Positions 912-49,531 of a DNA stretch of 60,128 nucleotides are shown here, in pieces. The position numbers and the translations under genes are program-made. The DNA comes from Minisyncoccota bacterium (GTDB taxonomy: Bacteria > Patescibacteriota > Minisyncoccia > UBA6257 > GWB1-50-10): assembly GCA_020059915.1 (NCBI GenBank), contig JAGVBB010000002.1, forward strand, positions 1 to 60,128. The letters are read 5' to 3'. Numbering within the stretch: position 1 is the first letter of the stretch; each line of letters opens with the position of its first letter. Under the pieces are notes generated by a model. It saw only the letters and a program-made list of their open reading frames with translations, ran no database searches and was not told where the DNA came from.

Positions 912-3635
912 TTATGAACACCCCCCCGAAGAACTTCCACACTGAAGACAGGTTTGGCAGGTGCCCGTCCGAACCATCATGCCTCCACATTTTTTACATA
1001 CCGTATCCCCTGCTGTTTGTCCCTTCTGATAAGTAGTAGTACTCTCTTTATATTCTTCCTTCTTCGTGGCAACAGAAACGGGTTCTTTTAATTCTCTTAT
1101 CCCCATGTGTTCTTCTCCAATTACTGGATTCATACCAAATTCGGAAAGATCATCCACTGAAAGAAAGCGCAATGAAAGATATCTAAAAATATAGTCGGCA
1201 ATACTTGTCGCAATTTTAATGTTTGGATTTTCAGTAAATCCAGCTGGCTCAAAACGTGTATAGATAAACTTTCGCGCAAACTCTCTAAATGGGACGCCAT
1301 ATTGCAATGCCATTGATACAGAAATCGCAAATGTATCAAGAAGTCCGGAAAGTGTGCTTCCTTGCTTTGACATACGAATAAAGATTTCTGCTAATGTTCC
1401 ATCCTCAAACATTCCATAAGTAAGGTATCCGCTATGTCCTGCTATAGAAAATTTATGAGTTTCAGAAACGCGTGTCATAGGAAGTTTTTTACGCAAAGGA
1501 ACTTCTGTGTGTCCCGCTGGTGTCTTCTTTTCTTTTTTCTCGGAAGTATTGAGTGGTTGTGTCGCTTTTGACCCATCGCGATATACCGCAAATGCTTTGA
1601 TCCCCAATTTCCACGCCATTGTGTACGATTCTGCAATTTCTTCAACACTTGTTTCGTGTGACATGTTGAACGTTTTTGAAATTGCTCCAGAAATAAATGG
1701 CTGTACTGCCGCAACCATTTTTACATGTCCTTTCCAAGAAATAGTTCGTGTTCCTTTCGCCGGACGAACAGCACAATCAAATACAGGAAGATGCGATTCT
1801 TTTAAGTGGGGTGCATTTTCAATTGTCCCCTCACTTGCTATCCATGCGACAATATCATTTTTTTCTGTTTCATTGTATCCAAGTTTTGTGAGAGCTGATT
1901 CAATACTCGTATTCACAATCTTCATCCATCCGCCACCAACAAGTTGTTTCATCTTCACAATAGAAAAATCTGGTTCAACACCCGTCGTATCACAATCCAT
2001 CATGAATGAAATTGTTCCCGTAGGAGCAAGCACAGTAACCTGCGCATTTCTATATCCCGATTTTTCTCCCATTTCATATGCCTCATCCCAAACAATTTCT
2101 GCCTCTTTTGCTAATTTTTTATCATCCAAATACATCGTATCAATTTCACGTGATGCCGTTTGATGCATTTTAATCACATTAAGCATTGGATCCTTGTTCA
2201 ATTCATATACTTCAAACGCTCCCATCCGCTTTGCAATTACCGAAGAAAATCTATACGCCTCTCCAGACATAAGTGAGGTAATTGCTCCTGCCCACGCTCG
2301 CCCCTCTTCTGAGTCATATGGAATTCCCTTAGTCATAAGGAGTGCCCCTAGATTGGCGTATCCAAGGCCTAATTGCCTCATTTTATGGGTGTTTTCCCCT
2401 ATTCTCTCTGTTGGATAGCTTGATGCATCTACGATAATGTCCTGGGCCAAAATAAACATATCAACTGCATGTCTAAACTCTTTTACCATAAACGATCCAT
2501 CTGCTCTCACAAATTTCATTAAGTTAATAGAAGCAAGGTTACACGCTGAATTATCAACATGCATATATTCTGAACATGGGTTTGATGCGTTGATGCGCCC
2601 AGAATTTGGACATGTGTGCCACTTATTAATTGTTGTATCAAATTGCACACCTGGATCTCCACACTCCCATGCGGCTTTTGCAATTTCTTGTAAAACATCT
2701 CGCGCTCTATATGTTTCTGCGATACGTTTTGATGTTACATATTTTGTTTGCCAATCTGCGTCTTTTTCAACAGCATCCATAAATTCATCGGAAATACGAA
2801 TAGAGTTGTTTGCATTCTGATATTGAATTGAATTCCATGCTTCATCATTCAAATCTCCCATGTTGTATCCCGCATCCATAAGTGCATGAATCTTTTTTTC
2901 TTCTTCTGATTTCACACGAATAAATTCCAAAATATCTGGATGATCAATATTTAACACAACCATCTTTGCTGCACGTCGTGTAGTGCCTCCAGATTTTATC
3001 ATTCCCGCAACAGAATCTGCTCCACGCATAAATGAAACCGGACCAGATGCATGTCCACCTTTAGAAAGTGATTCATTCTTTGCGCGTAATGAAGAAAGAT
3101 TTATTCCAGCACCAGAACCACCTTTGAAAATCATTCCCTCAGTTTTTATCCAATCAAGTATGGATCGCATATCGTCTTCAACAGAAAGAATGAAACATGC
3201 AGAACATTGTGGGCGCTCTTTTGTCCCCACATTAAACCAAACAGGACTATTAAACGATCCTCTTTGGTGTAATAGAATGTGTGTTAATTCATCTTCAAAA
3301 ATTTGTGCCTGTTTTATGTTTGTAAAATATCCAAACTTTTCCCCCCACGTACGAATTGTCTTTGCAACTCGTGTTATCATTTGTTTCAAACTTTCTTCAC
3401 GCTCTGGAGATCCTAATTTTCCACGAAAATATTTTGATACAGTAATATTTACTGCATTCGGAGACCAAGATTCAGGAAACTCGACATGCTCTTGTTTAAA
3501 TGAGGCAACACTCGCATCGCGAAAAACCCATTTCACTTCATCGAACGGATGTATGTTCTCTTTTGTAAACATACGACGAAATGCAATCTGACTTTTTGTT
3601 TTTACATTAATTTTGTCGAGTTTCTTTATTGCCAT
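912..3635 (-). CDS. nrdJ: Class II (B12-dependent) ribonucleotide reductase with TSCPD-like domain and C-terminal zinc ribbon
   Basis: FNSPVW, QCSACFI, ASNPCSEY, CNLASIN, APTGTIS and YRDGSK motifs; C-terminal CKKC..CLQC..GGCS. Confidence 0.95.
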   Translation of the reverse strand: MAIKKLDKINVKTKSQIAFRRMFTKENIHPFDEVKWVFRDASVASFKQEHVEFPESWSPNAVNITVSKYFRGKLGSPEREESLKQMITRVAKTIRTWGEKFGYFTNIKQAQIFEDELTHILLHQRGSFNSPVWFNVGTKERPQCSACFILSVEDDMRSILDWIKTEGMIFKGGSGAGINLSSLRAKNESLSKGGHASGPVSFMRGADSVAGMIKSGGTTRRAAKMVVLNIDHPDILEFIRVKSEEEKKIHALMDAGYNMGDLNDEAWNSIQYQNANNSIRISDEFMDAVEKDADWQTKYVTSKRIAETYRARDVLQEIAKAAWECGDPGVQFDTTINKWHTCPNSGRINASNPCSEYMHVDNSACNLASINLMKFVRADGSFMVKEFRHAVDMFILAQDIIVDASSYPTERIGENTHKMRQLGLGYANLGALLMTKGIPYDSEEGRAWAGAITSLMSGEAYRFSSVIAKRMGAFEVYELNKDPMLNVIKMHQTASREIDTMYLDDKKLAKEAEIVWDEAYEMGEKSGYRNAQVTVLAPTGTISFMMDCDTTGVEPDFSIVKMKQLVGGGWMKIVNTSIESALTKLGYNETEKNDIVAWIASEGTIENAPHLKESHLPVFDCAVRPAKGTRTISWKGHVKMVAAVQPFISGAISKTFNMSHETSVEEIAESYTMAWKLGIKAFAVYRDGSKATQPLNTSEKKEKKTPAGHTEVPLRKKLPMTRVSETHKFSIAGHSGYLTYGMFEDGTLAEIFIRMSKQGSTLSGLLDTFAISVSMALQYGVPFREFARKFIYTRFEPAGFTENPNIKIATSIADYIFRYLSLRFLSVDDLSEFGMNPVIGEEHMGIRELKEPVSVATKKEEYKESTTTYQKGQTAGDTVCKKCGGMMVRTGTCQTCLQCGSSSGGCS

Positions 3636-3731
3636 AACTTTACTGTATCACAGGTAAAAATCTTTACTATGTACATAACCACCCGACAAGAAAGAAAACG
3701 GGACAAACTGTCCACTTTTTTGCGAATGTGT

Positions 3732-3760
3732 AAAAACTCCCCAATATATGGAGAGTTTTT
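3732..3760 (-). terminator. Terminator after ftsZ
   Basis: aaaaactcccc-aatatat-ggagagttttt. Confidence 0.6.
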
Positions 3761-3776
3761 TATATGATATATACGT

Positions 3777-5000
3777 TTATTTCTTCTTTTTTCTTAAAAA
3801 TGCTGGAATTTCCCACTCCTCTTCTTCTTTTTCTTCCTGAGTCTTCTGTTTTTCTTCAGTGTTTTTCGTTTTTTCTTTTACTTCCTCCATTTTTGGGCTT
3901 TCATGATGCAAAACCTTCGGTATTTCTTCGGTCATAAATAATGTGGGGGCTATCATCCGTTGAGAAAATACTCCATTAAAGCCCGTTGCAATGACGGTCA
4001 CCTTAATACTCTTATCTTTTAGACTTCTATCATAATAAGATCCAAAAATAACACGAGCGTTTGCATCAAGTCCGCTAGAAACAGCGTTTGCAATCTCCTG
4101 TATTTCTGTCATTTTAATATCTTTTCCACCTGCAATGCTAAACAAGACACTCCGCGCTCCATCAATAGATATTTCAAGAAGCGGAGAATTAAGTGCTGAT
4201 TGTATTGCTTTTACCGAGCGCTCCTGTCCGGACCCGATACCGATGCCAATGAGTGTTGTTCCCGCGTCTTTCAATGTTGCTTTTACATCAGCAAAGTCAA
4301 CATTGATTAACCCTGGTGTATTGATAAGTTCTGCAAGTGATTGAACGGCATTTTTTAGTACCTCATCAATAAATCCAAATGCTCGCGCCATGGAAGTATC
4401 TCTATCAATCAAACTAAATATTCTATCGTTTGGGATTACCACCAATGCATCAACCTTATCCTTCAATCGCGTTATTCCCTCTTGGGCAATTTGTGCGCGT
4501 TGTGAACCCTCAAACATAAACGGCTTTGTAACAATCCCAATAGTAAGAATTCCTTTTTCTTTCGCAATCTCTGCAACAACCGGAGCACCACCGCTTCCTG
4601 TTCCTCCACCAAATCCCGCAGTAACAAAAACAATATCTGCACCATCAATAAGTTCACCAATTTCAGAACGATTTTCTTCCGCCGCCTGCTTTCCAATTTC
4701 TGGATTCATTCCAGCACCAAGTCCACGTGTTAATGCTTTTCCGATATATACCTTTCGATGAGCAGAAACAAAATCAAGATCTTGTGCATCAGTATTTACT
4801 GCAATAAACTCAACACCACGAACTCTTTCTGGAGATTCCATCATTCGTGAAATTGCATTTCCCCCACCACCACCAACACCAATAACTTTTATTTTTGCTG
4901 GTTGTATAGAAGATTTTTTTACTACTTTTTGTGATTTAGGAATTTTCTCCTCAATAATATTCTTTGCCGGTTTCTTTGATTTTGTTTCTTTTTTCTTCAT
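3777..5000 (-). CDS. ftsZ: Cell division GTPase FtsZ
   Basis: GVGGGGGN, GGGTGSG and INVDFAD motifs; C-terminal EIPAFLR. Confidence 0.98.
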   Translation of the reverse strand: MKKKETKSKKPAKNIIEEKIPKSQKVVKKSSIQPAKIKVIGVGGGGGNAISRMMESPERVRGVEFIAVNTDAQDLDFVSAHRKVYIGKALTRGLGAGMNPEIGKQAAEENRSEIGELIDGADIVFVTAGFGGGTGSGGAPVVAEIAKEKGILTIGIVTKPFMFEGSQRAQIAQEGITRLKDKVDALVVIPNDRIFSLIDRDTSMARAFGFIDEVLKNAVQSLAELINTPGLINVDFADVKATLKDAGTTLIGIGIGSGQERSVKAIQSALNSPLLEISIDGARSVLFSIAGGKDIKMTEIQEIANAVSSGLDANARVIFGSYYDRSLKDKSIKVTVIATGFNGVFSQRMIAPTLFMTEEIPKVLHHESPKMEEVKEKTKNTEEKQKTQEEKEEEEWEIPAFLRKKKK

Positions 5001-12989: not shown

Positions 12990-13916
12990 TCAATGTTTTT
13001 CTCCACTGTGGAATACTTCGTATATATTGAGGACAGCTTTCACTGCATCTCCAACAGAAATATTATTTTGCCGATATGGAATATCAGTGATGTCCCCCGC
13101 TGCCCAAATACCAGAACACGAGGTTTTCATGGTGCGCGCATCAACAATAATTGCTCCATATTGGTTTCGTTCAACAAGATGTTCAACAAAACCACTGTTG
13201 GGGACGGCACCAATTTCCACAAATATACCATCAACAGGAAGTGAGATATTTTTGTTTGTCGTTTTATCGGTATAGGTAATCCCAGATACAGAACCACTCC
13301 CCTCTATGGATGTTGTTTCTGCGTTATAAATAATGTGTACCTTCTCTGATTTTTTTATTTTTTCCTGGGTAATCAAATCACCCTTAAGCTCACTGCCATG
13401 ATGAATAAGATAAATAGAAGACGCGTAGGGCATCAAATCAAGAACCGCCTCCAACGCGGAATTCCCACCACCAATAACCGAAACTGTTTTTTCTCCAAAC
13501 AATGGCGCATCACATATTGAACAATAAAACACCCCCTTCCCCTCGAATTCGGACTCGCCAGGAACATTCAACTTTCTTCTTCCACTTCCCGATGCAACCA
13601 AAATCATTTTTGTTTCATATGATTTTGTTTTTGTTTTTACAAAAAATGTTCCATCATCTTTTTTTTCAACGGCAATAACCGGCTCTCCATCATTGATTTC
13701 AACGCCCGACTGTGCTCGCAAATGTTTTTCAAGTGACTGTGCAAGTTCAAGCCCAGATATTGAGGGGGTACCAACCCAATTTTGAATGTCTGCAGAAACA
13801 ACCGACTGACCACCAAATAGGTCCGCAACGACAAGTGTTTTTAGTCGCTTTCTCCCTGCATACACACCACCTGCCACCGCCGCAGGTCCACCACCGATAA
13901 TAATAAGATCATACAT
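12990..13916 (-). CDS. trxB: Thioredoxin-disulfide reductase family
   Basis: GGGPA, CSICD redox pair, GGGNSA, AAGD. Confidence 0.9.
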   Translation of the reverse strand: MYDLIIIGGGPAAVAGGVYAGRKRLKTLVVADLFGGQSVVSADIQNWVGTPSISGLELAQSLEKHLRAQSGVEINDGEPVIAVEKKDDGTFFVKTKTKSYETKMILVASGSGRRKLNVPGESEFEGKGVFYCSICDAPLFGEKTVSVIGGGNSALEAVLDLMPYASSIYLIHHGSELKGDLITQEKIKKSEKVHIIYNAETTSIEGSGSVSGITYTDKTTNKNISLPVDGIFVEIGAVPNSGFVEHLVERNQYGAIIVDARTMKTSCSGIWAAGDITDIPYRQNNISVGDAVKAVLNIYEVFHSGEKH

Positions 13917-13923
13917 AGATAGA

Positions 13924-13951
13924 TTTTTAGCTTTTAGCGGTTAGCTATTAG
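13924..13951. repeat. Heptamer array (NNNTTAG)x4
   Basis: tttttag cttttag cggttag ctattag. Confidence 0.75.
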
Positions 13952-13975
13952 CATTACAATAGTTTAAACGACTTT

Positions 13976-14323
13976 TTATAATTTTGAAATAAATACATTA
14001 AGCATTTTCATTACTTCTTCTAACTTCCCCTCAATACATCGAAACAACTCAATATCAATTAAACCAATACGTTTAGCAATTTCAAGTTGAGTATTAAGTT
14101 CTGATCCAGAGCCATATGCAATCCGAAGAAATTGTTTAAACTCCTTATCTATTCCTCGCATTCGTCCCTCTGCAATATTTGATGGGATAGAAACAGCACA
14201 TCTTCTCATTTGTGAAACTAGACCAAACATCTCACTCCTTGGAAATTTTTCTGTGATTACATACACATCAGAGACAATGTCCATACTCCGCTGCCAAATT
14301 AAAAGATCTTTGTATGATTTCAT
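13976..14323 (-). CDS. Four-helix-bundle protein (23S rRNA IVS protein-like family)
   Basis: SYKDLLIWQ, FPRSEMFGLVSQMRRCAVSIPSNIAEG, GSGSELNTQL. Confidence 0.93.
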   Translation of the reverse strand: MKSYKDLLIWQRSMDIVSDVYVITEKFPRSEMFGLVSQMRRCAVSIPSNIAEGRMRGIDKEFKQFLRIAYGSGSELNTQLEIAKRIGLIDIELFRCIEGKLEEVMKMLNVFISKL

Positions 14324-14327
14324 ATAG

Positions 14328-14355
14328 CTAACAGCTAAAGACTAATGGCTAATTG
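14328..14355. repeat. Heptamer array (CTAANNN)x4, inverted relative to 13924-13951
   Basis: ctaacag ctaaaga ctaatgg ctaattg. Confidence 0.75.
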
Positions 14356-14359
14356 CTAG

Positions 14360-14524
14360 CTACTCTTCTGGCGGAATGAAATTCCAAAGAATAAACAGTG
14401 ATATAAGACACCCAGAAAATATATTGCTCCAGAGAGCAAGATTATATGAAGAAAATCCCAACACCCATGGAGATACAAGGATCCAAATCCCCAAACCGAA
14501 TACTATCCAATAATTCCAATGCAT
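14360..14524 (-). CDS. SPW-repeat small membrane protein, 54 aa (absent from the ORF track)
   Basis: Hand translation MHWNYWIVFGLGIWILVSPWVLGFSSYNLALWSNIFSGCLISLFILWNFIPPEE; TATAAT 6 nt upstream. Confidence 0.8.
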   Translation of the reverse strand: MHWNYWIVFGLGIWILVSPWVLGFSSYNLALWSNIFSGCLISLFILWNFIPPEE

Positions 14525-14587
14525 ATATCCATTATACGGATAATACGCATAAAATAAAATCTCCCTTTTAGGGGAGATTTTATCTCA

Positions 14588-15310
14588 TTATTTTTGATTC
14601 AATATTTCTTCCAGTGCCGCCTTAAACTGTTCTACTGGCATATATCCGTTCAATGGAAGATATTGTCCATTTGGTGCAATCACCACAGAATATGGGGTGC
14701 CCTGAAGTCCTGATTTATTTCCATCCTCAATATTTGTCTGAATCAATTTATCAAAATCTCCCGAGGTCAAACACTTCTCAAACTCTCCACGATCCACACC
14801 AACTTGTGTCGCAAACGTTGGAAGTAATGCGAGATCCAATCCGTCATTTGATTTTGTTGATTCAAAGATTTTATCAACATACTGCCAAAACGCTTCCTCT
14901 CCTCCCAAATCAGCAACACATTCAGTTGCTATTGCTTCCTGTTTCGCCTGCTTGTGCAACGTGGTAAGTGGGAAGTTTCTCAACACAAACTGAATCTTTC
15001 CCGGCATTTCCTGCATCACCTGCTTCAATACATTGTGATATTCCTTACAGAACGGACACTCAAGATCAGTAAAGCCAATAATTTTGATTGGCGCATCATC
15101 TGGTCCAAGTTTGTGATCTTTCTTTGAAATTGGTCTCACATTTTTTGCGGCCTGATCGCCAGCAACTGCGGGATTGTTGGGAACTCCTTCATTTGAAGGA
15201 TTGTTGGTTTTGCCCGCGTTATAAAATACTGCTCCCGCAATTAATACCGCGGCAATGAGAATGCTTGCGGGAAGTAAGTAATCTCTTTTTTGTTTGTGTT
15301 CGTGTTCCAT
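14588..15310 (-). CDS. DsbA-family oxidoreductase
   Basis: N-terminal TM, DLECPFC, RNFPL, GLQGTP. Confidence 0.92.
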   Translation of the reverse strand: MEHEHKQKRDYLLPASILIAAVLIAGAVFYNAGKTNNPSNEGVPNNPAVAGDQAAKNVRPISKKDHKLGPDDAPIKIIGFTDLECPFCKEYHNVLKQVMQEMPGKIQFVLRNFPLTTLHKQAKQEAIATECVADLGGEEAFWQYVDKIFESTKSNDGLDLALLPTFATQVGVDRGEFEKCLTSGDFDKLIQTNIEDGNKSGLQGTPYSVVIAPNGQYLPLNGYMPVEQFKAALEEILNQK

Positions 15311-29493: not shown

Positions 29494-29599
29494 CCCGTTT
29501 AGAAATCCTGACAATTTGGTTTGTTCGACAAAAATGGTTTTAATTTCATAAATATATAATTTCAGTGGTTATCCCGTACAAGTTCAGATTTCTAACGGG
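29494..29599. mobile_element. 106-bp MITE-like element, copy 2
   Basis: cccgtttagaaa ... tttctaacggg; left ~45 bp similar to 9808-9911. Confidence 0.65.
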
Positions 29600-29788
29600 A
29601 TCCATTACCAGTAAGTGTATCGCACTTATTGAAAGATTTAAAGATTGAAAATTGAAGAATAATGGAGGTAGGCCCCACTACAAGAGAAATCCTAATATCT
29701 AAAAACTAAATTCCAAACAAATTCAGAGAAATTTTAAACAGGAGAGTAAATTCCCGCTGGAGTTTATCCGCCGTGGCAAAAGAGATGG

Positions 29789-29880
29789 ATTCCCGTTTTC
29801 ACGGGAATGACAGAATGGGAACGTGAGTGACAGAAGGAGGACGGGAATGACGGGTATGAGTCGAGGATGATAGAACAGGT
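29789..29880. repeat. ATTCCC-N8-GGGAAT palindrome plus four degenerate 20-nt tandem units
   Basis: attccc gttttcac gggaat; units start at 29801, 29821, 29841, 29861. Confidence 0.7.
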
Positions 29881-29887
29881 AATGAAA

Positions 29888-29918
29888 TAAAAAAAGAACC
29901 CCCGAGGGGGTTCTTTTT
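29888..29918 (-). terminator. Terminator of the surface-protein gene
   Basis: aaaaaagaaccccc-ga-gggggttctttt. Confidence 0.75.
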
Positions 29919-29930
29919 CAACACGAATTA

Positions 29931-38583: not shown

Positions 38584-39360
38584 TTACTTAATTTCGTACT
38601 GCAAAGAAATATTCACAACCACATCCTGAGATCCCGCTTCAATTGAAGGTGCTGGCGCCCCACCACCAAGACTCTCTGCCATACTTACCTTTGCATTACG
38701 GAGATAGCTATCATATACCGGCTGGTAGCCACCCTCGCTGATACCCAACAATCTTCCCACTGAAAATCCTCCCGCGTCTGCAATCTGTTCTGCTTTTTCT
38801 TTTGCTTTTTCAATCGCTTGCTCACGTGCTTTTGCCATCACAGAAGATGGATCATCAATAGTGAATTGAAGTCCGGAAACATTGTTTGCACCGTTTTGTA
38901 CTACGCCAGAGAGAATATCTCCTGCTTTTTCAAAATCACGGACCTTCACTCCAACCGATTGGGTAACCGTGTACCCCACAATTTCTGCTGGTGGACACGA
39001 ACCACCGTCTTTACATCCATAATATTGATATCGTGGATCTACATTAAAGCTTTCTGTTTTTATATCCTTATCCGCAACTCCCTGATCTTTTATGTATGTG
39101 ATTGCCTTGTTCATCTTTTCGATATTCTGCTTTTGAAGATCTCCAAGATTTTTTCCGCCTTGCGTGATAACGCTGAACGAAAATTTAGCAACATCAGGAA
39201 CGGCAACTACTTTTCCTTCGCCGGACACGCTGAAACTCCTGAAGGAGCCTGGCTCAATAGTTTTTGAATAAGTATTTGCATATGACCACGATGCAATACT
39301 GAGTATGAGTGCGGCAACGCCAACACTCATGAGTGTATATTGTTTCATTTTGTTTTCCAT
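38584..39360 (-). CDS. SIMPL (DUF541/YggE) domain protein
   Basis: VSGEGKVVAVPD, DKDIKT, AREQAIEKAKEKA, IEAGSQDV. Confidence 0.9.
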   Translation of the reverse strand: MENKMKQYTLMSVGVAALILSIASWSYANTYSKTIEPGSFRSFSVSGEGKVVAVPDVAKFSFSVITQGGKNLGDLQKQNIEKMNKAITYIKDQGVADKDIKTESFNVDPRYQYYGCKDGGSCPPAEIVGYTVTQSVGVKVRDFEKAGDILSGVVQNGANNVSGLQFTIDDPSSVMAKAREQAIEKAKEKAEQIADAGGFSVGRLLGISEGGYQPVYDSYLRNAKVSMAESLGGGAPAPSIEAGSQDVVVNISLQYEIK

Positions 39361-39401: not shown

Positions 39402-40577
39402 CTATTTACCAAAAATATTAGAAAGACGCTGTAATGCTTCCACTATATCTTCCTTTGTTGTCTGATAACCAAAACTTGCTCGCACACCATTTATTTTTTT
39501 ATCATCCCCTCCATACATTGCGGATAATACATGTGATGCGCTGTGTGCACGTGCAGAACAGGCAGATCCAGAAGAAAAAGCAACGCCCAATAGATCTGCT
39601 TGTGTTAAAAATTCTTCTCGATTCATTTCTTGTAAATGAATATTAACAATATGTGGCGCATGTTTGCCGACTCCGTTTATCTTGCTTTCCGGGAAAATTT
39701 TCAAGAATCCTTTTATAAATTCTTTCCGTAGCAACTCAACGCGTTTCAGTTCTTTTTTCCTGTTTTTTTGAGCAACAGAAAATGCTTCTGTACAACCCAC
39801 AATATTTTGAACATTCTCAGTCCCCGATCGCAAACCAAATTCCTGACCACCACCAGTAATGATGGGGGTTAGTGGGTGGGGGTTAGGGGGTAGAGTAGAA
39901 ACAAGAACACCAACACCTTTTGGTCCACCACATTTATGTCCGGAAACAGTAAGCACATCAACACCAAGTTCTTTCAGTGAACAATCAAAATATGAGAATG
40001 CTTGGACGGCATCGGTGTGAAAGATAGGGGTTAGGGGGTGGGGGTTAGGGGGTAGAGATTTTTTAAAGTCAGAAACGATACAGGAGATTTCTTTAATTGG
40101 TTGAACAGATCCAATTTCGTTGTTCACATACATAATGGAAACAAGAGCAGTATTTTTTGTTAAAGATTTTTTTAGTTCATCCAATAAAATAATTCCATCT
40201 TCATCAACGGGGAGAAGCACAAGGTCTATTTTCTTTTCACGTTCAAGTGTGCGAGCAGTTTCAAGAACAGATTCGTGTTCAATACTCGAAATAACAACTC
40301 GTGGCACACCATTTCCCCTCCAGTTAGCAACAACCCCTCTCAAGGCAAGATTGTTTGCCTCGGTTGCAGAGCCACAGAACAACACACCGCGAAAATCAAC
40401 ATCAAATATCTTTGCTATTCGTTCGCGCGCACCATCAATGGCTCCCATGGCCTCCTGGCCAAAAGAATGAAGCGATCCTGGATTTCCAAACTTTATATTA
40501 AAGTATGGGATCATCGCTTTGATAACCTCTTTTCTTACTGGCGTTGTCGCCGCATAATCAAGATAAATTCGCCTCAT
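39402..40577 (-). CDS. Cysteine desulfurase (NifS/IscS class V)
   Basis: YLDYAATTP, GNPGSLH, HTDAVQA, SGHKCGGPKG, RSGTEN, SSGSACS; ATG at 40577. Confidence 0.94.
   Translation of the reverse strand: MRRIYLDYAATTPVRKEVIKAMIPYFNIKFGNPGSLHSFGQEAMGAIDGARERIAKIFDVDFRGVLFCGSATEANNLALRGVVANWRGNGVPRVVISSIEHESVLETARTLEREKKIDLVLLPVDEDGIILLDELKKSLTKNTALVSIMYVNNEIGSVQPIKEISCIVSDFKKSLPPNPHPLTPIFHTDAVQAFSYFDCSLKELGVDVLTVSGHKCGGPKGVGVLVSTLPPNPHPLTPIITGGGQEFGLRSGTENVQNIVGCTEAFSVAQKNRKKELKRVELLRKEFIKGFLKIFPESKINGVGKHAPHIVNIHLQEMNREEFLTQADLLGVAFSSGSACSARAHSASHVLSAMYGGDDKKINGVRASFGYQTTKEDIVEALQRLSNIFGK
39861..39895. repeat. In-frame heptamer insert, copy 2 (encodes LPPNPHPLTP)
   Basis: 33/35 identical to 40023-40057. 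Confidence 0.9.
40023..40057. repeat. In-frame heptamer insert, copy 1 (encodes LPPNPHPLTP)
   Basis: Coding strand ctacccc ctaaccc ccacccc ctaaccc. Confidence 0.9.
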
Positions 40578-40617
40578 CACTCCATATATTGCCACACTTG
40601 ACAAAATACACAATAAT

Positions 40618-49211: not shown

Positions 49212-49253
49212 AAAGTTCAGATGAAAAAACATTCCGCGATGCGGAATGTTTTT

Positions 49254-49531
49254 TTTGTCGGCACTTCGCACTGCTGTATTCAGCACCTCCTTCGCCTTCG
49301 CTTTTTGTCGGCACTTCGCACTGCTGTATTCAGCACCTCCTTCGCCTTCGCTCAGTCGGGATGCCGGGAATCGCCTCTCGCTCTACTGAGCTCGAAACCT
49401 ACGACCTCTCTTCGAGGTCTGCGGCCCGCGGTTCGATTCCATTTCAAAAAATAAAAAACGGGGCAAGAAGCTCCGTTTTTTATTTGTCGGTACTTCGCAC
49501 TGCTGTGCTCAGCACCTCCTTCGCCTTTGCT
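49254..49531. repeat. Three 49-bp direct repeats, a 22-bp tRNA-Pro 3'-end copy and the 74-nt element (copy B)
   Basis: Copies at 49254, 49304, 49483; 49352-49373 equals 49531-49552. Confidence 0.9.

Follow-up and report, generated by a model that had tools for sequence, protein, structure and literature searches.

In Coxiella burnetii, the intervening sequence (IVS) sits in helix 45 of the 23S rRNA, carries an open reading frame (ORF) of the S23p family, and has a 28-bp terminal stem that RNase III cleaves mid-stem (Warrier et al. 2016, PMC4990558). Just 5′ of the ATG lie three tandem copies of GACAGAT and a degenerate one, the 5′ cut falling at the first repeat; the heptamer copy number (3 to 4) varies between strains, and the ORF is decaying in some of them (PMC4990558). 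According to an older proposal, the IVS is mobile and its ORF serves this mobility (cited in PMC4990558; see also Ralph and McClelland 1993, as cited there). Tandem heptamers have also been described in intergenic DNA, namely, GGGAATC arrays in Xanthomonas, with 70 to 75 cases of convergent (inverted) array pairs, and GGGGA(C/T)T arrays in Nostoc (Rehm et al. 2015, PMC4692102). The TAACTGA arrays described from Beggiatoaceae, cyanobacteria, and Bacteroidetes stop 1 nt short of start codons and hold stops in three frames (MacGregor 2015, PMC4679880). In a 60,128-nt stretch of contig JAGVBB010000002.1 from a Minisyncoccota bacterium (38% G+C), hereafter the window, we analyzed a gene for a 115-residue four-helix-bundle (FHB) protein of the S23p family that is enclosed by two inverted arrays of heptamers. 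We conclude that this feature is probably a selfish cassette of the IVS type lodged in a protein-coding operon, the stem formed by its arrays being a predicted substrate of RNase III.

The cassette and its surroundings consist of the following elements.

14327..14362, minus strand: upstream (5′) array, in gene orientation TAGCTAG CAATTAG CCATTAG TCTTTAG CTGTTAG C, that is, five TTAG(C) heptamers; the SPW stop codon (14360-14362) lies inside the outermost unit, and the innermost unit stops 3 nt 5′ of the FHB ATG.
13976..14323, minus strand: FHB/S23p gene, 115 aa, matching PF05635 (23S_rRNA_IVP), TIGR02436, and NF008911.
13952..13975, minus strand: spacer of 24 nt that separates the FHB stop codon from the downstream array, AAAGTCGTTTAAACTATTGTAAT, near-identical in the L002 orthologue.
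13924..13951, minus strand: downstream (3′) array, which reads GCTAATA GCTAACC GCTAAAA GCTAAAA in gene orientation and has a core reverse-complementary to that of the upstream array; about 8 nt separate its end from the trxB ATG (13914-13916).
13918..14347, no strand: indel unit made up of the downstream array, the ORF, and most of the upstream array, replaced in groundwater contigs.
14360..14524, minus strand: SPW-domain ORF, 54 aa, PF03779 above cut-off; upstream neighbor and first gene of the putative transcription unit.
12990..13916, minus strand: gene for a thioredoxin-reductase-type flavoprotein (trxB-like); downstream neighbor on the same strand.
14554..14583, no strand: 13-bp hairpin with T runs, after a dsbA-like gene; likely end of the preceding transcription unit.

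On the plus strand, direct reading gave TTTTTAG CTTTTAG CGGTTAG CTATTAG followed by C for the left array (13924-13951) and CTAACAG CTAAAGA CTAATGG CTAATTG for the right array (14328-14355), the latter being extended by a fifth, degenerate unit, CTAGCTA (14356-14362), that includes the SPW stop codon. Both arrays have a conserved core of 5 nt, TTAGC/GCTAA, and a variable spacer of 2 nt. The order of elements in gene orientation is the SPW ORF with its TAG stop within the first heptamer, (NNTTAGC)x5, 3 nt, the FHB ORF to its TAA, 24 nt, (GCTAANN)x4, about 8 nt, and the ATG of the trxB-type gene. The left array was picked up by Tandem Repeats Finder (TRF), and an inverted-repeat finder returned the two arrays as 26-nt arms separated by 374 nt, with a complementarity of 77% (86% over 22 nt). 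When one mismatch was allowed, the pattern TTAGN3TTAGN3TTAG had nine matches in the window, five of them in the two cassette arrays, versus 0.22 ± 0.44 in shuffled sequences, and none of 100 shuffles reached nine. Among periods 5 to 10, only period 7 was in excess in the window, and both cassette arrays were among its four strongest period-7 segments. The initial annotation, which had described (NNNTTAG)x4 at 13924-13951 and inverted (CTAANNN)x4 at 14328-14355 on either side of a 115-aa gene between an SPW gene and trxB, was thus confirmed: direct reading, repeat finders, and shuffles agree on the arrays, and profile matches identify both neighbors.

The encoded protein is a full-length member of the PF05635/TIGR02436 family (S23p, 23S rRNA IVS protein), with scores above the curated cut-offs: 128.4 bits against PF05635 (cut-off, 33.8; residues 5 to 109; E = 1.6e-37), 122.2 bits against TIGR02436, "four helix bundle protein" (cut-off, 24; E = 1e-35), and 142.8 bits against NF008911 (cut-off, 137). 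Models for bAvd/Avd, the accessory protein of diversity-generating retroelements (DGRs), stayed below their cut-offs (PF22296, 30.3 bits with a cut-off of 40; NF033474, 31.7 bits with a cut-off of 80). The relationship of the family to rRNA IVS proteins and Avd, stated at the outset, is borne out by these matches and by PMC4990558. By sequence match, the closest solved structure was 2GSC (XCC0516 of Xanthomonas campestris; E = 5.6e-22), whose entry contains five chains; XCC0516 is described as a homopentameric toroid in PMC4990558, citing Lin 2006. The best relatives of the window protein were found in Patescibacteria, with a 90%-identical orthologue (locus L002) followed by a 64%-identical protein (L003), and FHB proteins share the invariant motif SIPSNIAEG, QxxR. 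The dN/dS ratio between the window and L002 FHB genes was 0.065, so that the protein is under purifying selection and functional. The corresponding dS was 0.67 for the FHB gene, about half of that of its flanks (1.30 for trxB and 1.04 for SPW), which hints that the cassette was shared more recently than the flanks, in a comparison of 348 nt that are near saturation.

When one genome per GTDB species was scanned, FHB relatives 45 to 61% identical turned up at 80 loci, which belonged to Patescibacteria, Bacteroidota, Clostridia, Gammaproteobacteria, Acidobacteriota, Actinomycetota, Cloacimonadota, and one archaeon. Most of these loci displayed tandem short repeats just 5′ of the ATG and their reverse complement just 3′ of the stop codon. 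We used 146 other genes of the same loci as controls and their 95th percentile as the threshold. The inverted-flank score lay above this threshold for 53 of 77 FHB genes (Mann-Whitney p = 1e-17), and tandem structure was likewise in excess upstream (p = 1e-14) and downstream (p = 7e-10); inverted arrays around paralogues, which the initial annotation had proposed as a check, are therefore present. Over 143 loci, strong inverted flanks were seen almost exclusively at FHB genes, and the genes bearing them included additional FHB paralogues that had not been queried (L050, 4177-4548, and one in L110). About 9 of the 16 FHB loci on viral contigs also had arrays. Published data supply an independent case, entry #15 of PMC4692102: in Xanthomonas, an array of four GGGAATC-type units lies 6 nt after bccP (XCC0517) and overlaps the annotated start of XCC0516, the FHB protein of PDB 2GSC. 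The period was mostly 7, with some arrays of period 8 or 9; the number of units per array had a median of 4.3 and a mode of 4, the arms had a median length of 24 nt, and 88% of the aligned arm positions were Watson-Crick pairs. The repeat unit varied from cassette to cassette (GTGGACA, GGTTTTC, ACGGTTC, AGTACTG, 8-mers such as GGTGAAAG, and the 9-mer TGTTGAAGT) with the mirror symmetry kept, and it differed between two paralogues of one metagenome-assembled genome (MAG; L045 and L048) and between two paralogues of one locus (L050). L002 has the same dsbA-SPW-FHB-trxB context as the window and 5+5 units with the same core and other spacers; L003 has another context (secY-FHB-tRNA-hsdM), with units of the (TCTTTAG) type upstream and their complement downstream. 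Judged from these sequences, the gene with its inverted arrays is a trait of the FHB family and not of this locus. In other lineages, unrelated FHB cassettes, in L110 (2031-2393) and L096 (about 3572-3934), with units of the AGTAGTT and GAATTAG types, lie immediately upstream or downstream of trxB and look like independent insertions beside the same gene.

A metagenome scan with the TrxB protein returned 59 loci. By identity of all four flanking genes, the relationship was (window,(L002,L085)), with L086, L087, and L088 outside. L085 lacked the cassette, and its SPW-trxB junction held, between TAA and ATG, the sequence CTAAAAACTAAAATCTATCATT, a pair of CTAA heptamers resembling the distal end of the window downstream array. 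The junctions of L086 and L087 measured 26 and 33 nt and contained no heptamers; the range for the three junctions without a cassette was 22 to 33 nt. In more distant relatives a glutaredoxin-like gene was found at the junction. Groundwater runs X2, X3, and X4 contained same-species contigs with flanks 95 to 99% identical to the window in which positions 13918-14347 were replaced by 88 nt of unrelated or diverged sequence. The first 30 letters of this replacement are TTAG heptamers (TAGATAGTTAGATATTAGTTTTTAGATATT), and the last 30 (GTTAACCTTTGAAATAGTTAAGGGTCAACA) include a stretch resembling the last FHB codons, placed as expected after deletion of most of the ORF. From these 60 of the 88 letters, we infer that the allele is a cassette that lost most of its ORF. 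The alleles look like a decay series running from the intact cassette through an ORF-deleted shell and two remaining units to nothing, and a loss in L085 would be more parsimonious than two gains. The gene is thus not fixed at this position, which settles in the affirmative whether relatives have an SPW-trxB junction without the cassette. The DsbA-like protein of the window (14588-15310) shared more identity with its counterpart in the outgroup L086 (81.5%) than with those of L002 or L085 (77%), unlike the products of the other three flanking genes, and this hints at recombination in the region.

Cassettes are inserted in the sense of their surroundings, the FHB gene being co-oriented with its neighbors in 48 of the 51 loci in which both neighbors point the same way. 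The gaps between the FHB gene and its neighbors had medians of 58 and 53 nt, and the arrays fill these spacers. A consensus scan of the minus strand, which misses the leaderless type with a −10 element only, detected no promoter or terminator consensus within the window cassette, including the FHB-trxB interval. TATAAT is present at 14531-14536, 6 nt before the SPW ATG, in a leaderless-type arrangement. Because no internal consensus was detected, the hairpin at 14554-14583 closes the dsbA unit, and TATAAT precedes SPW, we consider that SPW, FHB, and trxB probably form one transcription unit that starts anew after dsbA. Shine-Dalgarno sequences were rare in the window (5 of 45 genes), and TATAAT lies 6 to 8 nt before the ATG of several genes (SPW, dsbA at 15310, and the genes at 39360 and 41760), a pattern that suggests widespread leaderless mRNAs in this organism. 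On the viral contigs L156 and L157, a promoter-like TTGACA...TATAT site and a GGGGAGG ribosome-binding site lie between the CAACGTT array and the FHB ATG, so that certain cassettes may be equipped, inside the arrays, with expression signals of their own.

RNA from a relative is available for L081, a rumen Ruminococcus MAG: in rumen RNA contigs, its FHB ORF was transcribed at about the level of the downstream neighbor. In runs X14 to X17, contigs related to the L081 arrays (2440-2493 and 2872-2925) join (TTAGTGG)n to (CCACTAA)n via loops of 4 to 18 nt. These ORF-less TTAGTGG/CCACTAA hairpins reached a depth of up to about 5450, versus about 11 for the L081 FHB ORF, and are thus very abundant RNAs in that community; one loose end of the hairpin contigs runs into tRNA-like sequence.

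According to the IVS-type reading, a promoterless S23p/FHB gene enclosed by the two inverted heptamer arrays would owe its transcription to the host promoter that precedes SPW. Within the RNA, the 5′ (UUAGC)n would pair with the 3′ (GCUAA)n into an imperfect stem of about 30 positions, the ORF lying in its loop. This stem would be a target of RNase III, as in the S23p-bearing intervening sequences of 23S rRNA, and its cleavage would release the cassette RNA and leave the flanking cistrons usable, so that the insertion would be cheap for the host. Arms built of tandem units could change by slippage yet pair in any register, which would account for the drift of unit sequence and copy number together with the persistence of mirror symmetry. 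The TAG or TAA in each unit would also close all three frames to ribosomes entering the cassette. For the pentameric protein, one possibility is a role in aiding the spread or persistence of the element.

Folding predictions are consistent with such a stem. For the window, both the minimum free energy (MFE) and the centroid structures computed by RNAfold paired the two arrays and placed the ORF in the loop, giving complementary termini around an S23p ORF as in IVS elements. The arrays of L002 were also paired in the MFE and centroid structures, with a z score of −2.9. At least 18 flank-to-flank pairs were predicted in 36 of 74 cassettes, versus 6 of 71 when the flanks were taken 300 nt further out.

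Several observations weigh against the IVS-type reading. The window stem consists of an inner 12-bp helix followed by 5-bp helices separated by 2x2 loops, the 2-nt spacers being mostly non-complementary, and the window fold as a whole was not better than that of shuffles (z = −0.96). The mismatches in 56 paired arms comprised 38 G:U and 32 A:C, a non-significant difference and hence no signature of selection on the sense RNA; this strand test neither supports nor excludes an RNA stem. A core with a variable spacer would be no less expected of a repeated recognition motif or a stop codon than of a helix. About 30% of the FHB family members had no clear arrays. The window sequence was found only in DNA metagenome runs, so that its transcription, pairing, and cleavage are predictions. 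The L081 arrays attract many foreign RNA contigs, and contig ends located there may be assembly breaks. No conserved 23S motifs were found around any FHB locus examined, so that the rRNA precedent is an analogy.

The main rival, which is compatible with the stem model, holds that the arrays are binding sites of the FHB pentamer, one heptamer per subunit, in the manner of TRAP on (G/U)AG repeats. In this view, the protein would either control the cassette that encodes it or produce and spread the arrays, and the inverted layout would provide symmetric DNA binding at both ends. We regard this explanation as unlikely, although it has several points in its favor. The 5-nt core with its 2-nt spacer resembles a recognition motif, the usual number of units (5+5 in L002) comes near the five subunits that make up the 2GSC/XCC0516 toroid, purifying selection on the protein is strong, and the arms lack a wobble signature of sense RNA. 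Avd, a relative of the FHB proteins, binds nucleic acid. Taxa with heptamer arrays (Xanthomonas and Nostoc) also have FHB genes, and one Xanthomonas array, entry #15 of PMC4692102, abuts the FHB gene XCC0516. Other observations weigh against binding by the protein. The units vary widely (TTAGC, GTGGACA, GGTTTTC, CAACGTT; periods 7 to 9) while the SIPSNIAEG, QxxR motif of the protein is constant. In RNA, the two arrays are complementary and not identical, so that a single-strand binder would see only one of them. Finally, arrays occur without a nearby FHB gene in L113, L121, and L124.

These three loci belong to other Patescibacteria, in which heptamer arrays stand in front of trxB. In L113 (about 2440-2500), (AGCATGA)x5 has grown from the stop codon of the glutaredoxin-like gene and is absent in the close relatives L112 and L118; L124 (about 2230-2310) has an ORF-less hairpin, (ATTTTCA)n/(TGAAAAT)n, and L121 (about 715-770) has CTATTGG-type units.

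A second alternative is that the cassette is a non-autonomous DNA transposon resembling a miniature inverted-repeat transposable element (MITE), with the arrays as terminal or subterminal repeats for a transposase encoded elsewhere and the FHB gene as cargo. Inverted termini made of repeated short motifs, presence or absence at one site in close relatives, remnants, and the occurrence of FHB cassettes in many unrelated contexts and on viral contigs would all suit such an element. We nevertheless consider it improbable. Comparison of filled and empty sites revealed no target-site duplication. The cassette is present in one copy in 60 kb: a hidden Markov model (HMM) search of the six-frame translation, covering also the other repeat-bearing gaps, detected no second FHB copy or remnant elsewhere in the window, and no near-identical cassette was found at another locus. 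No transposase was found among the scanned neighbors of the window cassette or among the called neighbors within 6 kb on either side of the L002 cassette, and the neighbors of both cassettes included no reverse transcriptase or pair of template and variable repeats. Units that differ within one genome (L045/L048) or one locus (L050) could not be served by a single transposase, and the 48:3 orientation bias is not expected from transposition alone. The initial annotation had seen in gene and arrays a minimal mobile cassette. The part of this proposal that stands is a discrete unit whose components are gained, lost, and decay together; a mechanism of transposition, a target duplication, or a second copy did not come to light.

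The heptamers might instead serve translational insulation, a stop codon every 7 nt closing all frames and blocking ribosomes from reading into or out of the cassette, with the inverted symmetry as a by-product; we give this explanation little credence. Both window arrays do close three frames on both strands, and the SPW stop codon belongs to the first unit. Reading inward, three frames were closed in 34 of the 57 upstream arrays and 25 of the 45 downstream ones versus 7 of 400 random 30-mers (2%), and reading outward, in 32 to 38% of the arrays, that is, less often than inward. The TAACTGA repeats likewise have stops in three frames (PMC4679880). Yet about 40% of the arrays, such as those of GTGGACA or GGTTTTC, have no stop in the unit and still keep the inverted symmetry, arrays of period 9 cannot shift the frame, and any heptamer containing a stop closes the frames automatically. 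The excess on reading inward may simply reflect the polarity of the inward strand, which is rich in G, and insulation gives no reason for the mirror arrangement.

It is very improbable that the arrays are ordinary slippage-prone intergenic microsatellites placed symmetrically around the FHB gene by coincidence: heptamer repeats are over-represented in bacterial intergenic DNA (PMC4692102) and solo arrays do arise de novo, as in L113 compared with L112 and L118, but the shuffle and control statistics (53 of 77 FHB genes; strong inverted flanks almost only at FHB genes) contradict this explanation, and the arrays are kept in the 90%-identical orthologue and recur in 45 to 64%-identical relatives, in other phyla, and in other contexts.

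An inversion switch was ruled out by the 48:3 sense orientation. An integron cassette and a CRISPR-like array were dropped, with no dedicated test for either; no integrase was present among the scanned neighbors, and no attC-like site or spacers were noticed. PADLOC defence models gave no match.

Other repeats are present in the window, and the initial suggestion that the FHB protein may bind or propagate them found no support: those arrays are made of different units or are short solo runs, and units differ between cassettes. A period-7 array of the TTTTAAT type (154-190, about five copies) is unrelated to the TTAGC arrays. The non-coding gap of 416 nt at 29515-29930 contains a solo (CTAANNN)x3 (29690-29712), a period-8 repeat (29628-29656), and a period-20 repeat (29801-29859); an HMM search of this gap detected no FHB remnant, and Rfam gave no match. 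Two near-identical G-rich inserts of 30 nt (39863-39895 and 40023-40058; GGGGTTAGGGGGTGGGGGTTAGGGGGTAGAG on the plus strand) lie within the ORF at 39402-40613 (minus strand), which encodes a class-V aminotransferase (NifS/IscS-like, PF00266). They have a TTAGGGG-type period of 7 (GGGGTTA units), are in frame, and each translate to LPPNPHPLTP; their four G-runs amount to a motif of the G-quadruplex type on the template strand of a genome with 38% G+C. At 49252-49352, near the tRNA-Pro and tRNA-Arg genes, a 50-nt unit is perfectly duplicated in tandem (2.0 copies, 100% identity).

The small proteins of the very large PF05635/TIGR02436 family have solved structures and no settled function, and for 30 years they have been suspected of forming part of a mobile element. 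A common non-coding architecture, which combines inverted tandem arrays with insertion in the sense of the operon and with loss as a single unit, gives this family a concrete and testable anatomy that spans Patescibacteria, Bacteroidota, Clostridia, Proteobacteria, and viral contigs, and ties the rRNA intervening sequences to a much commoner non-rRNA form. It also offers a possible source of the heptamer microsatellites that are in excess in bacterial intergenic DNA. The IVS-type reading predicts RNase III-dependent cutting of operon mRNAs at the arrays, which would bear on operon annotation and on the interpretation of expression. More tentatively, S23p/FHB cassettes with inverted short-repeat arrays might form a single widespread selfish class, present in operons and rRNA and removing itself at the RNA level, whose pentamer recognizes or generates the repeats with one unit per subunit; this generalization is doubtful. 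If it were true, many unexplained heptamer arrays of bacteria, such as the Xanthomonas GGGAATC arrays, the cyanobacterial short tandemly repeated repetitive (STRR) sequences, the TAACTGA arrays, and the ORF-less array hairpins would be footprints or empty shells of cassettes. The literature searched contained no paper linking PF05635 genes outside rRNA to inverted repeat arrays, an absence of evidence limited to that literature.

Avd forms a pentameric ring. The likeness of the FHB protein to this DGR component resides in a distantly related four-helix-bundle fold with weak profile matches; the window protein scores below both curated Avd cut-offs, and the neighbors of the gene provide neither the reverse transcriptase nor the template and variable repeats of a DGR. 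Like the cassette, MITEs and other non-autonomous elements with terminal inverted repeats, and also the 'minimal mobile elements' of Neisseria, are small units bounded by inverted repeats that may be present or missing between conserved genes on either side. Unlike MITEs, the cassette shows no target-site duplication, occurs as a single copy in 60 kb, has ends of its own, and is strongly biased to the sense orientation.

The window arrays fall within the definition of intergenic heptamer arrays (at least 2 to 4 tandem units, intergenic, at a gene boundary) and resemble those of PMC4692102 and PMC4679880 in comprising about four units, in lying between co-directional genes, and in their proximity to the gene boundary. 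They differ in their TTAGC unit and in their pairing, since the published arrays are mostly solo and are treated as G-quadruplex or regulatory elements; the terms S23, IVS, and 'four helix' are absent from the text and supplements of both papers.

The comparison with the S23p-bearing 23S rRNA IVSs of Coxiella and Leptospira goes further. Here the host transcript is the mRNA of the SPW-FHB-trxB operon: Rfam detected no rRNA in the window, and the location in helix 9, 25, or 45 of 23S rRNA does not apply. Both window arms consist of tandem units, and the stem is broken by 2x2 loops. Cleavage by RNase III has been shown in Coxiella and is predicted here, and the window ORF is intact and under purifying selection. 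The two have in common an ORF of the same PF05635/S23p family that lies in the sense orientation within the host transcript, is dispensable, and decays in some strains, a long-standing suspicion of being mobile or selfish, tandem heptamers of variable copy number directly before the ATG (five units ending 3 nt before it in the window), and terminal inverted repeats able to form a stem of 24 to 30 positions around the ORF.

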